DNA of 4,690 nt, from IMG/VR virus record IMGVR_UViG_2565956720_000008. One strand, written 5' to 3'. The DNA comes from a virus (Duplodnaviria; Heunggongvirae; Uroviricota; Caudoviricetes). Below, piece after piece: positions 29 to 4,690 of the stretch. Both the position numbers and the translations under genes were made by a program. Under the pieces are notes generated by a model. That model saw nothing but the letters and a program-made list of their open reading frames with translations, was not told where the DNA came from and searched no databases. Numbering within the stretch: position 1 is the first letter of the stretch; each line of letters opens with the position of its first letter.

Positions 29-307
29 TCATCGAGTGTGAGGCTGTATGATTCCATGGTTACCTCTGCTTTTTGAACGCATGTCACGTAACTTCTTAAT
101 GTGTTCTGCCGTTTCGATCTCTTCTGCTATCCGATCTGCATCAGCTTTATTCACAGGTTCAAAGTCATGATTAAAGCGGAACATGCTGGCGATACATGTT
201 CTGCCTTTTCGGATGTAGTGAACTTTGTTGTGGGTAGAACGCAGGATTTTGCAGGGAGTGCCGTGGTGGTCGACGTACCAGGTGTTAGGCAAAATGATTC
301 TGAACAT
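29..307 (-). CDS. hypothetical small phage protein (92 aa) with a His/Cys-containing N-terminal half
   Basis: Minus-strand ORF with ATG at 307 preceded by a GAGGTG Shine-Dalgarno 5 nt upstream (minus strand reads GAGGTGTAAAAATG). Protein-like composition; the overlapping plus-strand ORF 101..334 looks like a shadow frame. No family recognised by eye. Confidence 0.55.
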   Translation of the reverse strand: MFRIILPNTWYVDHHGTPCKILRSTHNKVHYIRKGRTCIASMFRFNHDFEPVNKADADRIAEEIETAEHIKKLRDMRSKSRGNHGIIQPHTR

Positions 308-354: not shown

Positions 355-573
355 TCACAATCCCCATTGTTTGTTCTTAAGTTCGATCTCCTCCTGGCAA
401 CTTGCACAAGTCCGACAACCCTGAACAGCCAGGCGTCTTCGCTCATCTATCGGATCGCCACATTCACAACAATGAGTTGCGGATACAGTCTGGTAGTTCA
501 GACGACGCATTTTTATTGCTGTATTGCGCTGTAATTCTTCGATTTCTGATGCTGAATCAATGATGTCTGCCAT
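355..573 (-). CDS. TraR/DksA-family C4-type zinc-finger protein (72 aa), phage-encoded
   Basis: Translation contains C-x2-C-x17-C-x2-C-Q (CCECGDPIDERRRLAVQGCRTCASCQ), matching the TraR/DksA/YbiI zinc-finger signature (compare the YbiI-type motif CEECG.PIP.ARR...C..CQ as I recall it). Size is typical of phage TraR homologues. Start-site RBS is weak (GGGA about 10 nt upstream). Confidence 0.8.
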   Translation of the reverse strand: MADIIDSASEIEELQRNTAIKMRRLNYQTVSATHCCECGDPIDERRRLAVQGCRTCASCQEEIELKNKQWGL

Positions 574-671: not shown

Positions 672-953
672 TCACCGTTCCTTAAAGACGCCGTTCAACA
701 TGCCGATCGCCAGGCTTAAATGAGTCGGTGTGAATCCCATCAGCGTTACCGTTTCTCGGTGCTTCTTTAGTACGCTACGGCAAATGTCATCGACGTTTTT
801 ATCCGGAAACTGCTGTCTAGCTTTTTTGATTTCAGAATTAGCCTGACGGGCAATGCTGCGAAGGGCGTTTTCTTGCTGAGGTGTCACTGAACAAGCCCCA
901 TGTCGGCAAGCATAAGCACACATAATATGAAGCCCGCTGCCAGAAATATGCAT
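672..953 (-). CDS. hypothetical basic small protein (93 aa, or 83 aa from the alternative ATG at 923) with an N-terminal Cys cluster
   Basis: Minus-strand ORF whose start lies 10 nt after the stop of the 964..1155 ORF, suggesting an operon. C-terminal two-thirds looks protein-like (K/R-rich). No clear Shine-Dalgarno before either candidate ATG, so the start is uncertain. Family not recognised. Confidence 0.5.
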   Translation of the reverse strand: MHISGSGLHIMCAYACRHGACSVTPQQENALRSIARQANSEIKKARQQFPDKNVDDICRSVLKKHRETVTLMGFTPTHLSLAIGMLNGVFKER

Positions 954-963
954 TCAGTGGTTG

Positions 964-1155
964 TCATACCTGGTCTCTCTCATCTGCTTCTGCTTTCGCC
1001 ACCATCATTTCCAGCTTTTGTGAAAGGGATGCGGCTAACGTATGAAATTCTTCGTCTGTTTCTACTGGTATTGGCACAAACCTGACTCCAATTTGAGCGA
1101 GGCTATGTGCCATCTCGATACACGTTCTTAACTCAACAGGAGATGCTTTGTGCAT
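964..1155 (-). CDS. hypothetical acidic small protein (63 aa)
   Basis: Minus-strand ORF with ATG at 1155 and a G-rich stretch (ACGGGGGG) 5-9 nt upstream. Acidic, amphipathic-looking sequence. First gene of a leftward two-gene unit that ends at the hairpin near 621-649. Family not recognised by eye. Confidence 0.5.
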   Translation of the reverse strand: MHKASPVELRTCIEMAHSLAQIGVRFVPIPVETDEEFHTLAASLSQKLEMMVAKAEADERDQV

Positions 1156-1348
1156 ACAGCCCCCCGTTTATTATTTATCTCCTCAGCCAGTCGCTGTGCT
1201 TTCAGGGGATTTCGGATAACAGGAAGGCCGGGAAATACCCAGCCTCGCTTTGTAACGGAGTAGACGAAAGTGATCGCGCCTACTCGGGGAAAACATCCTT
1301 TCCTGCGATACGGAGAAGAGTATCCGGGAGCGGTTTTCTGTTTACCAG

Positions 1349-1798
1349 GTGGCGGGGCAGCGTGCCGGAAACGACGATGATTTCGGTGAGGCCACCACCA
1401 CCGCGCTGCGGGCCCGCACAGAGGACGCATTTATTGCCCGTTACCGTCCGATGTATATCAGGCAGACAGGGCAGGCTACGGGGGCTGGCTGTATTGCCCG
1501 TGCTGACTTTGAAGCCCGGCAACGGGCGGCGCGGACGGATGAAACCACCTATGTGGTGCAGGGCTGGCGACAGGGTAACGGTACGCTGTGGCAGCCCAAC
1601 CAGCGGGTGATTGTCTTTGATCCGGTCTGTGGTTTCGACAATACCGAACTGCTTGTTTCGGAAGTCACGTTTACTCAGGACCAGAACGGCACCCTGACGG
1701 AAATCCGTGTCGGCCCGCCTGATGCTTATCTGCCTGAACCCGAAGCCCCCGGCGCGCGGAAAAAGAAAAAAGCCAGAGTACAGGAGGACCCGTTCTGA
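1349..1798 (+). CDS. 5'-truncated remnant of a Mu gp44 / P2 gpD-like tail (baseplate hub) protein; about 150 C-terminal residues, likely pseudogene
   Basis: Sits immediately upstream of the gp45-like gene, with its stop TGA (1796-1798) overlapping that gene's ATG, the position gp44/P holds in the Mu order. The frame is open only back to an in-frame TGA at 1271-1273, with no ATG and only a GTG at 1349. Full-length gpD/gp44 proteins are roughly 380 aa, so the N-terminal part is missing. Family assignment is by position and general C-terminal character, not by alignment. Confidence 0.55.
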   Translation: MAGQRAGNDDDFGEATTTALRARTEDAFIARYRPMYIRQTGQATGAGCIARADFEARQRAARTDETTYVVQGWRQGNGTLWQPNQRVIVFDPVCGFDNTELLVSEVTFTQDQNGTLTEIRVGPPDAYLPEPEAPGARKKKKARVQEDPF

Positions 1799-2346
1799 TG
1801 AGGACGATTGAAGCCATGCAGCGACAACTCCTCGGCCTGATTGGGCGGGCCGTGGTGAAAAGCATCAGTGCCGCCACGAAATGTCAGACCGTGGATGTGT
1901 CCCTGATTGCCGGTGAACCCAAAGCCGGGGTTGAACATCTTGAACCCTACGGTTTTACCGCAAGGGCAAACAGCGGTGCGGAAGCGGTGGTGTTGTTTCC
2001 GGATGGCGACCGTTCTCATGCGGTGGTTGTTACGGTGTCGGACCGTCGCTACCGCCTGAAAGGGCTGCAAACGGGGGAGGTGGCTGTCTATGACGATCAG
2101 GGGCAGTCCGTGACGCTGACCCGGGAGGGGATCGTGGTGGACGGTGCAGGTAAAACGATCACGTTTCGCAATGCGCCCAGAGCACGTTTTGAAATGGACC
2201 TGGAAGTGACCGGACAGGTGAAAGACCTGTGCGACTCCGGCGGCACCACCATGTCAGCGATGCGGCTTGCCTATAACGGGCATCGTCACAGAGAGAACGG
2301 TCAGGGCAGTAACACCGACAAACCTGATAAAGCGATGGAGGCATGA
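1798..2346 (+). CDS. baseplate assembly protein V-like / Mu gp45-like spike protein (182 aa)
   Basis: ATG at 1798 with GGAGG 10 nt upstream. Size and sequence character are typical of gpV/gp45 baseplate spike proteins. Position in the conserved order gp44-gp45-gp46-gp47-gp48-fibre. Confidence 0.8.
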   Translation: MRTIEAMQRQLLGLIGRAVVKSISAATKCQTVDVSLIAGEPKAGVEHLEPYGFTARANSGAEAVVLFPDGDRSHAVVVTVSDRRYRLKGLQTGEVAVYDDQGQSVTLTREGIVVDGAGKTITFRNAPRARFEMDLEVTGQVKDLCDSGGTTMSAMRLAYNGHRHRENGQGSNTDKPDKAMEA

Positions 2347-2771
2347 TGGAACTGTGGCTGACGGTGAACGGTAAACGCACCTGCGCCAGCGCACCGCTGG
2401 ATCCGCTGACCCGCGCCGTGGTGATTTCCCTGTTCACCTGGCGGCGGGCGGAGCCTGATGACAATGCCGACGTCCCGATGGGATGGTGGGGGGATACCTG
2501 GCCTGCGGTACAGAATGACCGTTACGGCTCCCGGCTGTGGCTGCTTCAGCGCAGCAAACTGACCAATCAGCTGGTGCTGACGGTAAGGGGGTATATCCGC
2601 GAATGCCTGCAATGGATGATTGATGACGGCGTGGTGTCCCGTATTGATCTGGATATCCGCCGCACCGGGATTAATGAACTGGGTAACAGTATCACTCTCT
2701 GGCGTCGTGACGGACCGGTAATGATTTCTTTTGATGATCTGTGGAGTGCGATAACGCATGGCGGACAGTGA
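2343..2771 (+). CDS. phage GP46-family baseplate protein (Mu gp46-like), about 141 aa
   Basis: Two tandem ATGs at 2343 and 2346. GGAGG at 2337-2341 favours the ATG at 2346, which overlaps the upstream stop as TGATG. Size and position match Mu gp46. Ends 14 nt inside the next gene. Confidence 0.75.
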   Translation: MMELWLTVNGKRTCASAPLDPLTRAVVISLFTWRRAEPDDNADVPMGWWGDTWPAVQNDRYGSRLWLLQRSKLTNQLVLTVRGYIRECLQWMIDDGVVSRIDLDIRRTGINELGNSITLWRRDGPVMISFDDLWSAITHGGQ

Positions 2772-3816
2772 ATTTCAGCGCCCGACGCTGGCAGAAAATA
2801 TCAGTATGCTCCGTAACGATTTATTCGCCAGGCTGGACGTCAGCGACACGCTCCGGCGCATGGATGAAGACGTGCGGGCAAAGGTGTATGCGGCGGCGCT
2901 GCATACGGTTTACGGGTACATCGATTATCTGGCAATGAACATGCTGCCTGACCTGTGCGATGAGTCCTGGCTGGCGCGACATGCTGCGATGAAACGGTGT
3001 CCGCGCAAGGGGGCCACGGCTGCCAGCGGGTATATGCGCTGGGAAGGTGTCAGCGATGGCCTGAAGGTGACCGCCGGGAGTGTTATTCAGCGCGATGACC
3101 TGGTTCAGTATACTGCAACTGCCGATGCAACCAGCTCCGGTGGTGTCCTGCGCGTGCCGATCGCCTGCTCAAATGCAGGCGCGGTCGGTAACGCTGACGA
3201 CGGTACGGCATTAATCCTGGTCACGCCGGTGAATGGTCTGCCGTCTTCCGGTGTGGCTGACACCCTGACAGGCGGATTTGATACTGAAGAGCTGGAAACG
3301 TGGCGCGCCCGCGTCATTGAGCGGTATTACTGGACGCCGCAGGGCGGGGCTGACGGGGACTATGTCGTCTGGGCTAAAGAAGTGCCCGGCATTACCCGCG
3401 CATGGACATACCGTCACTGGATGGGAACGGGAACTGTCGGTGTGATGATTGCCAGCAGTGACCTGATTAATCCCATTCCGGAAGAATCAACGGAAACGGC
3501 GGCAAGACAACATATCGAGCCACTGGCCCCGGTGGCAGGCTCTGATTTGTATGTGTTCAGGCCGGTGGCACATACGGTGGATTTTCATATCCGCGTGACG
3601 CCGGATACACCAGAAATACGGGCTGCCATCACCGCGGAGTTGCGTTCGTTCCTGCTGCGTGATGGTTATCCGCAGGGAGAACTGAAGGTATCGCGTATCA
3701 GTGAGGCGATTTCCGGTGCGAACGGGGAATACAGCCATCAGTTGCTTGCACCGGCAGACAATATCTCCATTGCAAAAAATGAACTGGCGGTTCTGGGGAC
3801 GATTTCATGGACGTGA
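2758..3816 (+). CDS. baseplate J-like protein (Mu gp47 / P2 gpJ family), 352 aa
   Basis: Long ORF with uniform coding character and high GC. Length and position between the gp46-like and gp48-like genes match the baseplate J wedge protein. Start overlaps the upstream gene and stop overlaps the downstream gene (translational coupling). Confidence 0.85.
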
Positions 3817-4391
3817 CAAACGATGATTACATCCGTCTGTTGTCGGCACTGTTGCCCCCCGGTCCGGCGTGGTCAGCCAGCGATCCGGCGATTGCCGGTG
3901 CGGCACCGTCATTAACCCGCGTTCATCAGCGTGCGGATGCCCTGATGCGGGAGCTGGATCCGCGCACCACCACTGAACTGATAAACCGCTGGGAGCGTCT
4001 GTGCGGTCTGCCGGATGAATGTATTCCGGCAGGGACGCAGACCCTTCGCCAGCGTCAGCAACGGCTGGATGCGAAGGTTAACCTGGCGGGCGGCATCAAC
4101 GAGAATTTTTATCTTGCACAGCTTGCTGCCCTGGGCAGACCAGACGCTACCATCACGCGATACGACAAAAGCACGTTCACCTGCTCATCGGCCTGTACTG
4201 ACGCGGTGAATGCGCCGGAATGGCGGTATTACTGGCAGGTCAACATGCCAGCCGCCACAAACACCACCTGGATGACATGTGGCGATCCCTGTGATTCCGC
4301 GCTGCGTATCTGGGGCGACACCGTTGTCGAGTGTGTGCTTAACAAACTCTGCCCGTCGCATACCTACGTAATTTTTAAATATCCGGAGTAA
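3807..4391 (+). CDS. ymfQ: phage tail protein, Mu gp48 / P2 gpI-like, DUF2313 (YmfQ-like), 194 aa
   Basis: 194-aa ORF directly between the J-like gene and the tail-fibre gene. Length and context match e14 YmfQ-type proteins. The symbol is assigned by homology and context from memory and is not verified by alignment. Confidence 0.8.
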
Positions 4392-4395
4392 TCCA

Positions 4396-4690
4396 TGCAT
4401 CGTATAGACACGAAAACCGCGCAGAAGGATAAGTTCGGCGCGGGTAAGAACGGTTTTACCCGTGGTAACCCCCAGACCGGCACACCTGCCACCGATCTGG
4501 ATGATGACTACTTTGATATGTTGCAGGAAGAACTCTGCAGCGTGGTGGAGGCATCCGGTGCCAGCCTGGAGAAGGAGAGGCACGACCAGCTGCTTACTGC
4601 GCTTCGTGCGCTGCTGTTAAGCCGCAAGAATCCGTTTGGTGATATCAAATCGGATGGCACGGTGAAAACGGCTCTCGAAAACCTTGGTTT
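4396..4690 (+). CDS. side tail fibre protein, N-terminal constant (baseplate-attachment) region; partial, continues past the window end
   Basis: ATG at 4396 with GGAG 6 nt upstream. Translation begins [47 protein letters not shown]..., the conserved N-terminus of Mu S / P2 H / e14 Stf-type fibres. Not in the supplied ORF track because it has no stop inside the window. Confidence 0.85.
4672..4690 (+). other. putative DNA-invertase (Hin/Gin/Cin/Pin family) crossover site, left half plus core and start of right half; truncated by the window end
   Basis: Sequence CTCTCGAAAACC-TT-GGTTT matches the left 12-bp half-site of hixL-type sites (TTCTTGAAAACC, 10 of 12 identical) followed by a 2-bp core and the GGTTT start of the inverted right half-site; the reference site is quoted from memory. 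It lies about 92 codons into the tail-fibre gene, where the constant/variable junction of invertible fibre segments is expected. Confidence 0.45.

Follow-up and report, generated by a model that had tools for sequence, protein, structure and literature searches.

The 4,690-nt stretch of DNA analyzed here (the window) is the core of a ~10-kb defective prophage that lies in E. coli at a tRNA-Thr gene (thrW, beside proA), and it is very probably the remnant of one internal deletion of ~29 kb in an SfI-like prophage, in which the baseplate hub gene was truncated. Direct observations are the two homology blocks and the junction between them, the absence of the intervening genes, and intact relatives that occupy the same chromosomal site. 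The two halves of the window are unrelated to each other: bases 1 to 1287 hold lambda-type early-left genes on the minus strand (DUF4222, TraR/DksA, DUF1382, and DUF1317), while bases 1281 to 4690 hold SfV/Mu-type baseplate genes on the plus strand (a remnant of gpP/gp44, followed by gp45, gp46, gp47, gp48, and the start of a fiber gene). The coordinates of all features are collected in Table 1.

TABLE 1 Features of the 4,690-nt window
Feature	Position	Strand	Basis or remark
DUF4222 gene, lambda-type early-left	29..307	-	Pfam PF13973, E=1.7e-19; annotated DUF4222 in NZ_CP106756
TraR/DksA-type zinc-finger gene	355..573	-	Pfam PF01258, E=2.8e-9
Small hypothetical early-left gene	672..953 (PGAP: 672-887)	-	ORF list; annotated hypothetical
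DUF1382 gene, lambda early-left	964..1155	-	Pfam PF07131, E=7.9e-32, full length 1-60/60
DUF1317 gene, 5'-truncated	1128..1287	-	Residues 9-60/60 kept
Deletion junction TACTCGG; crossover in TAC (1281-1283)	1281..1287	.	Left/right homology limits
Baseplate-hub gene, 5'-truncated, pseudogene (Mu gp44/gpP, SfV orf16 homologue)	1280..1798	+	Codons 188-359/359
gp45-like central spike/baseplate assembly protein V, intact	1798..2346	+	Pfam PF06890, E=1.5e-24
gp46-like baseplate wedge protein, intact	2346..2771	+	Pfam PF07409, E=2.2e-32
gp47/baseplate J-like wedge protein, intact	2758..3816	+	Pfam PF04865, E=3.1e-53
gp48/YmfQ-like wedge protein, intact	3807..4391	+	Pfam PF10076, E=1e-26
Tail-fiber gene, 5' part; cut by window/contig end	4395..4690	+	747-nt gene in NZ_CP106756

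The limits of homology place the junction precisely. Similarity to lambdoid phages (97-98% over window bases 1-1287) stops at base 1287, and similarity to SfV, SfI, SfII, SfIV, and many E. coli prophages (97-99% over bases 1281-4690, with 97.9% identity to SfV over 3410 nt) begins at base 1281. The deletion or rearrangement junction that the initial annotation had placed in this part of the window is thus real, but its breakpoint lies at 1281-1283 and not at 1156, 1271, or 1349, and DUF1317 is truncated as well as the hub gene. Bases 1156-1280 form the 3' three-quarters of the truncated DUF1317 gene on the minus strand and are no part of the hub gene. At the junction, the left parent reads ...GATCGCGCC TACcCGG atatt and the right parent reads ...GCGCTGG TACTCGG GGAAAAC, so the parental sites have only TAC in common, with 6 of 7 positions agreeing over TACYCGG. 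The length of the junction microhomology, 3 to 7 nt, is uncertain because the left parent site is TACCCGG, not TACTCGG, in all available relatives. The junction may have had a two-step history.

The left breakpoint lies 23 nt inside DUF1317, which immediately follows exo in the leftward early transcript, and the right one lies at nucleotide 563 of the hub gene (codon 188). The start codon and the first 7-8 codons of DUF1317 (about 8) were lost, as a comparison of the window (...PRVGAITFVYSV...) with the intact gene of strain MB15 (MKHPHDNIRVGAITFVYSV...) indicates; in phage 2G7b, the DUF1317 gene extends to position 6312, whereas homology to the window stops at 6289. The outcome is a pair of 5'-truncated genes standing head to head. 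A chimeric 100-aa minus-strand ORF across the junction (1128-1430) has no called-gene record and found no support, and a crude consensus search of bases 900-1900 gave no promoter- or terminator-like site, including none newly created at the junction.

In NZ_CP106756, the genes run in the order proA, tRNA-Thr, int, xis, DUF4222, TraR, hypothetical, DUF1382, truncated DUF1317, truncated gpP, gp45-48, fiber, tfa, inverted cassette, pinE, and a GIY-YIG gene. The DUF4222 gene therefore neighbors xis/int, both of which are left of the window, and the full fiber gene, tfa, the inverted tfa/fiber cassette, and pinE lie beyond its right end. The initial annotation had noted a block of small minus-strand genes upstream of the hub ORF; these proved to be DUF4222, TraR/DksA, a hypothetical ORF without a match in the Pfam search (672..953), and DUF1382. 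It had also described the distal genes as intact and translationally coupled, which holds for gp45-gp48, whose lengths exactly equal those of their SfV counterparts (gp47, at 1059 nt, has the length of SfV orf19) and whose starts and stops overlap (TGATG at 1796-1800 between hub and gp45, then 14 nt, then 10 nt), but not for the fiber gene, which is cut where contig KI538751.1, identical to the window, terminates at window base 4690. The sequence AGGAGG stands 12 nt 5' of the gp45 ATG.

A search of the flanking genome, as the initial annotation had suggested, showed the element to be devoid of genes for the head, sheath, tube, tape measure, gpN, lysis, and immunity, and no sheath or tube genes were found in the operon. 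An R-type tailocin or other functional remnant was rejected on the grounds that sheath, tube, tape measure, intact hub, and lysis genes are absent, and a functional SfV/SfI-like temperate phage was rejected because the packaging-to-immunity gene set is not in the element.

The hub remnant is homologous to the gp44/GpP hub family, and it is the truncated gp44-like gene that the initial annotation had proposed. Its intact homologue aligns end to end with Mu gp44 (1WRU) and MuSo2 (3CDD) at E<=1e-50; in the comparison with Mu gp44 (gene P; PDB 1WRU/9KI1), residues 1-348 align at E=1.5e-50, and the gene stands directly 5' of gp45, as in Mu. The window holds only the C-terminal half relative to Mu gp44, corresponding approximately to residue 186 to the end, from the LVLGENLL motif. 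By BLASTP, 169 of its 172 residues (98%) are identical to residues 188-359 of the intact 359-aa hub of TUM1226. Both possible measures of its size fall below half of the expected length, in keeping with the initial estimate: the homologous remnant of 172 codons (1280-1795) makes up 48% of the full-length protein of SfV, SfI, and intact E. coli prophages, and the ORF that starts with GTG (1349..1798, plus strand, 149 aa) makes up 41%. A complete hub has four domains (GpP-like 1st, Gp44-like 2nd, 3rd, and 4th; about 360-380 aa), and this set is incomplete in the remnant, where Pfam detects the GpP_4th domain (PF21929, E=4.4e-19) and, weakly, the 3rd (E=8e-4). The 1st and 2nd N-terminal domains (PF21683 and PF22255) are absent from the remnant and were seen only in N-terminal halves elsewhere. 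On the gp45 side the gene is in its normal context (the TGATG overlap, then gp46-48), whereas upstream, minus-strand lambda-type genes occupy the place of those for gpN, tape measure, tube, and sheath.

The native ATG of the hub gene was deleted, leaving the remnant without a translation start of its own. Its frame is closed upstream by the TGA that the initial annotation had reported at 1271 (1271-1273), 3 codons before the remnant and 26 before the GTG at 1349, and no ATG, GTG, or TTG lies in frame between this stop and 1349. The earlier statement that the ORF has no ATG and only this GTG is accurate for the 5' end but not farther inside, where an in-frame ATG is present at 1451. No Shine-Dalgarno sequence was seen before either the GTG or this ATG, and PGAP labels the remnant "incomplete; missing N-terminus." Given the upstream stop, the lack of a promoter-like site nearby, and the lack of a visible Shine-Dalgarno sequence, the hub remnant is most likely a dead pseudogene, as judged from its sequence.

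It would be highly improbable for the 149-aa product to be, instead, a genuine protein, naturally short or domesticated, whose C-terminal hub domain still functions alongside gp45-gp48 and the fiber. The ORF is open and retains the domain that contacts the spike gp45 in the Mu hub (PMC11915804), yet it lacks the 1st and 2nd domains, both required for the trimeric tube-like hub (PMC11915804), and no tail could be built without sheath, tube, tape measure, and gpN, even though the downstream genes are intact and do not differ from those of functional prophages. In 174 blocks of the collection, gene callers do report precisely this product of 149 aa, but PGAP calls the hub remnant a pseudogene, and the GTG start has the stop 26 codons upstream and no Shine-Dalgarno sequence in view. 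The short entries in the databases are contig-end partials, frameshift splits, a scaffold gap, and other deletion junctions, and no group of them forms a family with its own start. A naturally short hub-domain family was therefore rejected: P0007 consists of contig-end partials, P0009 is a frameshift-split gene in a complete tail cluster, and P0002, P0005, P0015, and P0023 are fusion ORFs across other deletions. Since the fragment search returned short entries only, without the common 359-aa proteins, length statistics were taken from 1097 E. coli records with this hub-gene segment, 1092 of which have it uninterrupted.

The deletion reading draws on intact prophages at the same site. In MB15 and UID2309220003, prophages at thrW encode Int, Xis, and TraR proteins identical to those of the remnant (for TraR/DksA, WP_000763385.1 shows no difference between the remnant and the intact MB15 prophage), and their two modules, oriented the same way, are separated by 28,918 and 29,651 bp, respectively. 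At this site, intact prophages have the head genes along with those for sheath, tube, and tape measure, all in order, and the full phage gene set found in MB15, UID2309220003, TUM1226, SfV, and SfI is absent from the element between DUF1317 and the half hub gene. The comparison with intact relatives thus gave the deletion endpoints that the initial annotation had sought, with 28.9, 29.7, and 27.8 kb missing relative to MB15, UID2309220003, and SfI. Because the intact thrW prophages and SfI hold both modules 27.8-29.7 kb apart, a single deletion of ~29 kb would suffice to fuse the DUF1317 site to the hub-gene site. The nearest left half is that of MB15 (99.0%) and the nearest right half that of TUM1226 (99.15%), which are different strains, and the exact parent was not found among sequenced genomes.

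Recombination between two resident prophages, a lambdoid one of siphovirus type and an SfV-like myovirus, joined illegitimately or through short homology, would also produce such a junction. The best matches differ by half (lambdoid phages 2G7b and Turner on the left, SfV-like phages on the right), and E. coli genomes usually have several places that match parts of the window (median, 2). However, single intact thrW prophages already join both modules in the right order and orientation with identical Int, Xis, and TraR, the viable phage SfI has the same mosaic, and recombination between different loci would rearrange the chromosome, yet the element has the normal proA-thrW ... AraC-pao flanks that strains with an intact prophage also show. 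We therefore regard an origin from two prophages as improbable. The recombinational mosaic considered in the initial annotation does apply to the parent, which, like SfI, pairs tail genes of SfV with an early region of lambda type.

According to the single-deletion reading, the parent would have been an SfI-like temperate myovirus whose head and contractile tail were encoded by SfV/Mu-type genes and whose early region was lambda-type. The deletion would have removed, from the early part, exo-bet-gam-kil, N, cI/cro, O/P, the nin region, Q, and lysis and, from the late part, terminase, portal, protease, capsid, connectors, sheath, tube, tail chaperone, tape measure, and gpN, together with codons 1-187 of the 359 hub codons and about 8 DUF1317 codons. 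The ends were probably joined by RecA-independent short-homology illegitimate recombination or by end joining. The loss of immunity, replication, and lysis genes and of most virion genes would have fixed the element at its site as a harmless remnant, and the removal of Q and the late promoter would leave the retained gp45-gp48 and fiber genes transcriptionally orphaned.

A 200-nt query over the junction was fully covered in 2 of 5426 complete E. coli genomes. Four near-identical assemblies carry it, B-JRPT-4119, FORC_082, E. coli 101-1 (AAMK02000012), and KI538751.1 (the window), that is, two independent complete genomes (Sweden and Korea) and two drafts, which are 0-3 SNPs apart. The exact junction 29-mer had no match in GTDB species representatives and none in metagenome contigs. 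The junction is lineage-restricted. It is hardly conceivable that it is an assembly or scaffolding artifact, a suspicion that could be raised by the window stopping at a contig end and by drafts breaking in this repeat-rich region: the same junction occurs in the two complete genomes as well as the two drafts, with the same flanks for tens of kilobases, the 3-7-nt microhomology is far below assembler k-mers, and the extra IS1 of FORC_082, inserted in its DUF1382 gene, implies an independent history after the event. The proteins encoded by gp45, gp46, and gp48 still match those of intact prophages (WP_001259084.1, the same as in the intact TUM1226 prophage, and WP_000424728.1 and WP_000383556.1, identical between remnant and intact prophage), and because of this and the 0-3 SNPs among carriers, we infer from the sequences that the deletion event is recent.

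The hub endpoint of the deletion recurs elsewhere. Five different left partners join the hub gene within nt 559-566: the DUF1317 gene in the window (A), yfdR (B), the spacer between the tail-chaperone and tape-measure genes (C), a DnaB-like helicase gene (D), and, as event E, an intragenic 66-nt deletion. The intact sequence at the endpoint is CATACTGCGCT GGTA CTCGGGG, and the recurrent site reads CTGGTACTCGG. The GGTA microhomology is used at several junctions, and a second site, in an oweE-like gene, is common to e14 junction 1 and an unrelated hub fusion.

Because the same position ends at least 4 other independent rearrangements, the choice of the hub site may go beyond random microhomology alone. 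We tentatively propose, giving the idea somewhat less than an even chance, that hub nt 559-566 are a sequence-directed breakage or deletion hot spot that channels prophage decay. If so, a site-preferring DNA-breaking activity or a fragile structure would be at work instead of random microhomology, prophage decay would be partly deterministic, and the site would be a tractable one for studying illegitimate recombination in E. coli.

Several candidate causes of the recurrent endpoint were considered, and none found support. The fold of the site (z = -0.73) and its lack of an inverted repeat do not point to a DNA hairpin, and the site bears no resemblance to the SfI cos end (...TGCCCGCCCC) that would indicate a pseudo-cos. 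For Chi, GCTGGTac matches at 6 of 8 positions, and the orientation was read as wrong for protecting the retained side. The cleavage determinants of type IIA topoisomerases (-4G/-2A/-1T and +5A/+6T/+8C [PMC10117906]) are matched at about 3 of 8 positions in the best register, by eye, and there was no match by eye to the gix/hix half-site of Pin/Gin. Regarding CRISPR self-targeting, the 1083 E. coli records matching an 81-nt probe that spans the site are all full-length prophage hits, with no spacer-sized match.

This kind of remnant is already known; it is an ordinary e14-like prophage remnant, and the finding itself is routine. What it adds is a base-level record of an SfI-like thrW prophage reduced to an e14-like remnant and a clean pair of parent and product, with MB15 or SfI on one side and E. 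coli 101-1, B-JRPT-4119, and FORC_082 on the other. The 149-aa "phage tail protein" and "baseplate protein" entries in databases are fragments rather than a protein family, and the locus should be annotated as a pseudogene within a defective prophage.

Among known phages, SfI occupies the same thrW site next to proA and combines SfV-type morphogenesis genes with a lambda-type early region (PMC3636060). Window bases 1-869, 1153-1287, and 1281-4690 match SfI at 98%, 94%, and 97.7%, respectively, and SfI also has the DUF4222 gene (gp30). At 37-38 kb, SfI and SfV are complete and viable, and in each the full-length hub gene measures 1080 nt. The remnant lacks the equivalent of SfI positions 24404..38389 and 1..13816 (27.8 kb), and the gtr O-antigen genes of SfI/SfV give way to a Pin-invertible fiber cassette and a GIY-YIG gene. 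Other deletion derivatives of SfV-like prophages, at thrW and argW, all retain gp45-48 and fiber genes. They include strain 41, with a yfdR-to-gpP deletion at thrW; GCA_946409035, with a deletion from yfdR to gpP nt 561 at argW (the KpLE1/CPS-53 locus); and GIMC1405 and many Logan contigs, where the deletion runs from the spacer that follows the tail-chaperone gene as far as gpP nt 563. These differ from the element in left endpoint, locus, integrase, and extra deletions, each being an independent event.

A close known parallel is e14, the cryptic prophage of K-12, with which the initial annotation had compared the locus and which descends from the same SfV-like phage type by different deletions. 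Window bases 3029-4690 (the 3' part of gp47, ymfQ, and the fiber start) are 97.2% identical to e14 jayE-ymfQ-stfP over 1662 nt, with 97% identity between the gp48 DNA and K-12 e14 ymfQ. Both elements are internal-deletion derivatives with fused or truncated genes at their junctions, and both have int/xis at one end and the baseplate-wedge genes, fiber, tfa, and Pin-invertible cassette at the other. They differ in location and integrase, since e14 lies at icd with another integrase (IntE) and the present element lies at thrW with one of the SfI/SfV type, and in the cargo beside pin (mcrA in e14 versus a LEM-3-like GIY-YIG gene here). e14 underwent two deletions, oweE|aaaE and beeE|jayE, of about 10.9 and 13.3 kb (TUM1226 coordinates), whose junctions use the microhomologies GGT and GGTA; it retains cI/cro but has lost gp44, gp45, gp46, and half of gp47. 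In contrast, the element described here reflects one 29-kb deletion, in which the immunity-to-gpN region is gone and half of gp44 and the intact gp45-48 are kept.

The window combines a cluster of small ORFs on the minus strand (29-1155) with a plus-strand operon whose starts and stops overlap from 1798 to the window end, as seen in the ORF list and the sequence. Comparison with phage genomes divided it into two blocks, of which 1-1287 matches lambdoid phages (2G7b, ev243, Turner, and others) and 1281-4690 matches SfV, SfI, SfII, SfIV, and related E. coli myoviruses, both at 97-98%, and no phage record in this comparison spanned the two. At the base level, the left parent reads ...GATCGCGCC TACcCGG atatt..., the right parent ...CATACTGCGCTGG TACTCGG GGAAAAC..., and the window ...GATCGCGCC TACTCGG GGAAAAC..., which places the crossover inside TAC (1281-1283), with a microhomology of 3 nt if exact or of 6/7. 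A scan around this junction detected neither promoter-like nor terminator-like sites.

Domains recognized in the window outside the truncated genes
Feature	Coordinates (nt)	Strand	Evidence
DUF4222	29-307	-	Pfam
TraR/DksA zinc finger	355-573	-	Pfam
DUF1382	964-1155	-	Pfam
Mu gp45 N-terminal domain	1798-2346	+	Pfam
GP46	2343/2346-2771	+	Pfam
Baseplate_J	2758-3816	+	Pfam
Mu gp48	3807-4391	+	Pfam

The whole window is covered in 2 of 5,426 complete E. coli genomes, B-JRPT-4119 (99.9%) and FORC_082, which has the same arrangement plus an IS1 within DUF1382; a 200-nt probe spanning the junction retrieved the same two. In B-JRPT-4119 the element begins straight after proA and tRNA-Thr and runs through integrase, an excisionase-like HTH gene, DUF4222, TraR/DksA, a hypothetical gene, DUF1382, and DUF1317 to an N-terminally incomplete baseplate gene, gp45, gp46, gp47, and YmfQ, followed by fibre, tfa, an inverted tfa/fibre pair, pinE, a LEM-3-like GIY-YIG gene, and host genes. 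It carries no head, sheath, tube, tape-measure, lysis, replication, or repressor genes. The same site holds a complete 38-kb SfV-like prophage in TUM1226, with a hub gene of 1,080 nt and early-left genes of the yfdT-yfdP type. When the block from int to DUF1317 was used as a query, it was present in 174 genomes, two of which (MB15 and UID2309220003) contain complete thrW prophages with both window modules. From DUF1317, these continue with exo-bet-gam-kil, cI/cro, O/P, the nin region, Q, and lysis genes, and then with terminase, portal, capsid, sheath, tube, tape measure, gpN, gpP, gp45, and other baseplate genes. The Int, Xis, and TraR proteins of MB15 and the remnant are identical, and by BLAST the two window blocks lie 28,918 bp apart in MB15 and 29,651 bp apart in UID2309220003. 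This layout is that of SfI, a characterized viable phage that integrates at thrW; its authors describe a mosaic in which morphogenesis genes of the SfV/e14 type are combined with an early region of the lambda type (PMC3636060). Given that both modules are present but apart in the intact thrW prophages and in SfI, one internal deletion in an SfI-like prophage explains the window; in SfI coordinates, it removes 24404..38389 together with 1..13816, which amounts to 27.8 of the 38.4 kb. The finding is an ordinary scar left by a deletion in a defective prophage, as the initial annotation had correctly read it.

These prophages also differ in cargo: in MB15 and UID2309220003 the serum-survival gene iss separates the lysis genes from terminase, TUM1226 has two annotated anti-phage genes after Q, and Avs2 adjoins the UID2309220003 prophage.

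Translation of 1274-1798 gave a Pfam match to the fourth domain of GpP (Mu baseplate protein; E=4.4e-19) and a weak one to the third, and none to the first and second. The N-terminal domains PF21683 and PF22255, missing here, are found elsewhere only in N-terminal halves. The remnant aligns without gaps to residues 188-359 of the hub protein of TUM1226 (359 aa; 169/172 identical). End-to-end alignments of this full-length protein with Mu gp44 (1WRU/9KI1, residues 1-348) and with the 43-kDa tail protein of MuSo2 (3CDD) identify it as the baseplate hub. In Mu, three copies of gp44 form a pseudo-hexameric tube-like hub via tube-like domains, and the flexible C-terminal domain touches both the gp45 spike and the tape measure (PMC11915804). 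The frame is indeed closed by TGA (1271-1273), and GTG 1349 is the first start, giving an ORF of 149 aa; the statement that there is no ATG holds for the 5' end of this ORF but not overall, with one in frame at 1451. On inspection, no Shine-Dalgarno sequence was seen before GTG 1349 or ATG 1451; gp45 retains its own AGGAGG. With Q, the activator of the late genes, and the late promoter region both lost, gp45-gp48 are likely silent. RefSeq annotation already flags the remnant as a pseudogene, the PGAP label in B-JRPT-4119 (window 1280-1798) being "incomplete; missing N-terminus."

Used as a protein query, the fragment retrieved only short or odd entries, and none represents a naturally short family: they are partials, split genes, or fusions. 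The 149-aa cluster P0007 stems from contigs whose first bases already lie within a normal hub gene. In P0009 the gene is split and the entry is its downstream half, the surrounding tail cluster being otherwise complete, and P0002, P0005, P0015, and P0023 are ORFs fused over other deletion junctions. The hub-gene segment is uninterrupted in 1,092 of 1,097 records from complete genomes, and no sheath or tube genes were found in the same operon. The two tests fail to refute the reading given in the initial annotation. The Salmonella enterica protein P0001 (184 aa) shows a further kind of rearrangement within the hub gene: in this C-terminal fragment, ~70 internal residues are duplicated in tandem (AGCIARADF...TQDQNG twice).

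The deletion also removed the start codon and first 7-8 codons of DUF1317, whose intact protein in MB15 reads MKHPHDNIRVGAITF..., compared with ...PRVGAITF... in the window. Two divergent genes that abut head to head, both lacking their 5' ends, bear the signature of a deletion in which all the sequence separating two divergent transcription units was lost. In RefSeq (WP_071777090.1) and in the output of the collection's gene caller, DUF1317 appears as a 48-aa protein (1128-1274, minus strand) whose first codon (1274-1272) is ATC, a noncanonical start; the call was apparently driven by homology, the gene having lost its real start. Past the junction the same frame stays open in antisense to the hub gene as far as ATG 1430, forming a 100-aa chimeric ORF (1128-1430, minus strand), for which no gene record with this product was found.

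The exact 149-aa product occurs in several contexts, and alignment showed three left partners meeting the hub gene within 2 nt of one another (types A to C); type C is also present in the complete genome GIMC1405. As this set was chosen via one ORF product and is biased, we used a less biased sample of 120 metagenome loci with a conserved gp45 22-mer, unselected on the hub gene. Of these loci, 15 were uninformative; the gene was intact in 102 and broken within its 1,080 nt in 3, two of which (L134 and L142; types D and E) break at the same spot.

Rearrangements ending at the recurrent position in the hub gene
Type	Left partner	Left sequence	Hub sequence	Context	Remarks
A	DUF1317		TACTCGGGG	thrW	window
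B	yfdR	...CTGGGGGTA	CTCGGGG	argW/KpLE1 locus	GGTA microhomology; L016 ~9931
C	spacer after tail-chaperone gene (before tape-measure gene)	...GACTGCGCCAGT	TACTCGGGG	argW with csc genes	L017 ~9933
D	DnaB-like helicase fragment		TACTCGGGG	metagenome	single contig
E	in-frame 66-nt internal deletion	...CAGCAGC	TGGTACTCGGGG	metagenome	single contig

Five independent rearrangements with unrelated left partners end within 8 nt, at hub nt 559-566 (window 1281-1290; 41526-41533 in the TUM1226 locus L003). Other endpoints lie at nt ~217 (strain 41), ~537, ~595, and ~607 (fusion ORFs), and 754 (the third metagenome break, L105). Five of ~11 known endpoints fall inside the 8-nt interval, compared with ~0.1 expected under uniform placement, with types A to C picked via one ORF product. 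The recurrence is real in the data reached, and none of the tested causes accounts for it: a hairpin, a cos-like sequence, Chi and type IIA topoisomerase determinants (both judged by eye), and a CRISPR spacer (in E. coli genomes) were all unsupported. It modestly raises the otherwise low interest of the deletion scar.

The left end of L105 (its first 55 nt) lies at TUM1226 position 17355, within 1 nt of the left end of the e14 oweE-aaaE deletion (17354; e14 locus L008 10402). An oweE-like (GntR-like) gene is thus a second reused endpoint, in the first deletion of e14 and in an unrelated one fusing it to hub nt 754 (also in protein P0015). This site reads GCCAGG GTA ACC, similar to the yfdR partner CTGGGG GTA ACC and the terminase partner TCGGTAACCCC. 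GGTA microhomology is common to type B and e14 junction 2 and is imperfect in L105. Strain 41 has a further independent remnant at thrW, in which a 110-nt fragment links truncated yfdR to hub nt ~217 and a second deletion truncates ymfQ; early-left-to-baseplate deletions recur in this prophage family.

The window is identical to the last 4,690 nt of KI538751.1 (GCA_000495035.1), and 2-3 SNPs separate it from E. coli 101-1 (AAMK02000012) and from B-JRPT-4119. It shares identical gp45, gp46, and YmfQ proteins with the intact prophage of TUM1226, and the junction 29-mer was absent from GTDB species representatives and the metagenome contig collection. The deletion is recent and confined to one lineage, and nothing pointed to selection on the remnant. 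IS1 lies inside DUF1382 in FORC_082 (L005 9068-9765; window equivalent ~1050) and downstream of the GIY-YIG gene in B-JRPT-4119 (L001 28785-29482); these two distinct insertions show independent decay after the shared deletion. The window end, which cuts off a tail-fibre gene (4395-4690), is the exact contig end; in complete genomes a Pin-invertible fibre/tfa cassette follows, and, being repeated in the genome, it presumably breaks short-read assemblies.

K-12 e14 aligns with the TUM1226-type prophage as three collinear blocks separated by two deletions (oweE-aaaE, ~10.9 kb; beeE-jayE, ~13.3 kb), and its jayE-ymfQ-stfP segment is 97.2% identical to window 3029-4690. The description "e14-like" is therefore apt in kind, although the two elements differ in site (thrW versus icd), integrase, and deletion endpoints. 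Prophages and remnants of the thrW type have, beside pinE at their right end, a gene for a LEM-3-like GIY-YIG nuclease (L001 27113-27886; L003 47443-48216; L020 15663-16436), in the position that mcrA occupies in e14. The defective prophage joins the well-known e14-like remnants of SfV/SfI-type phages.
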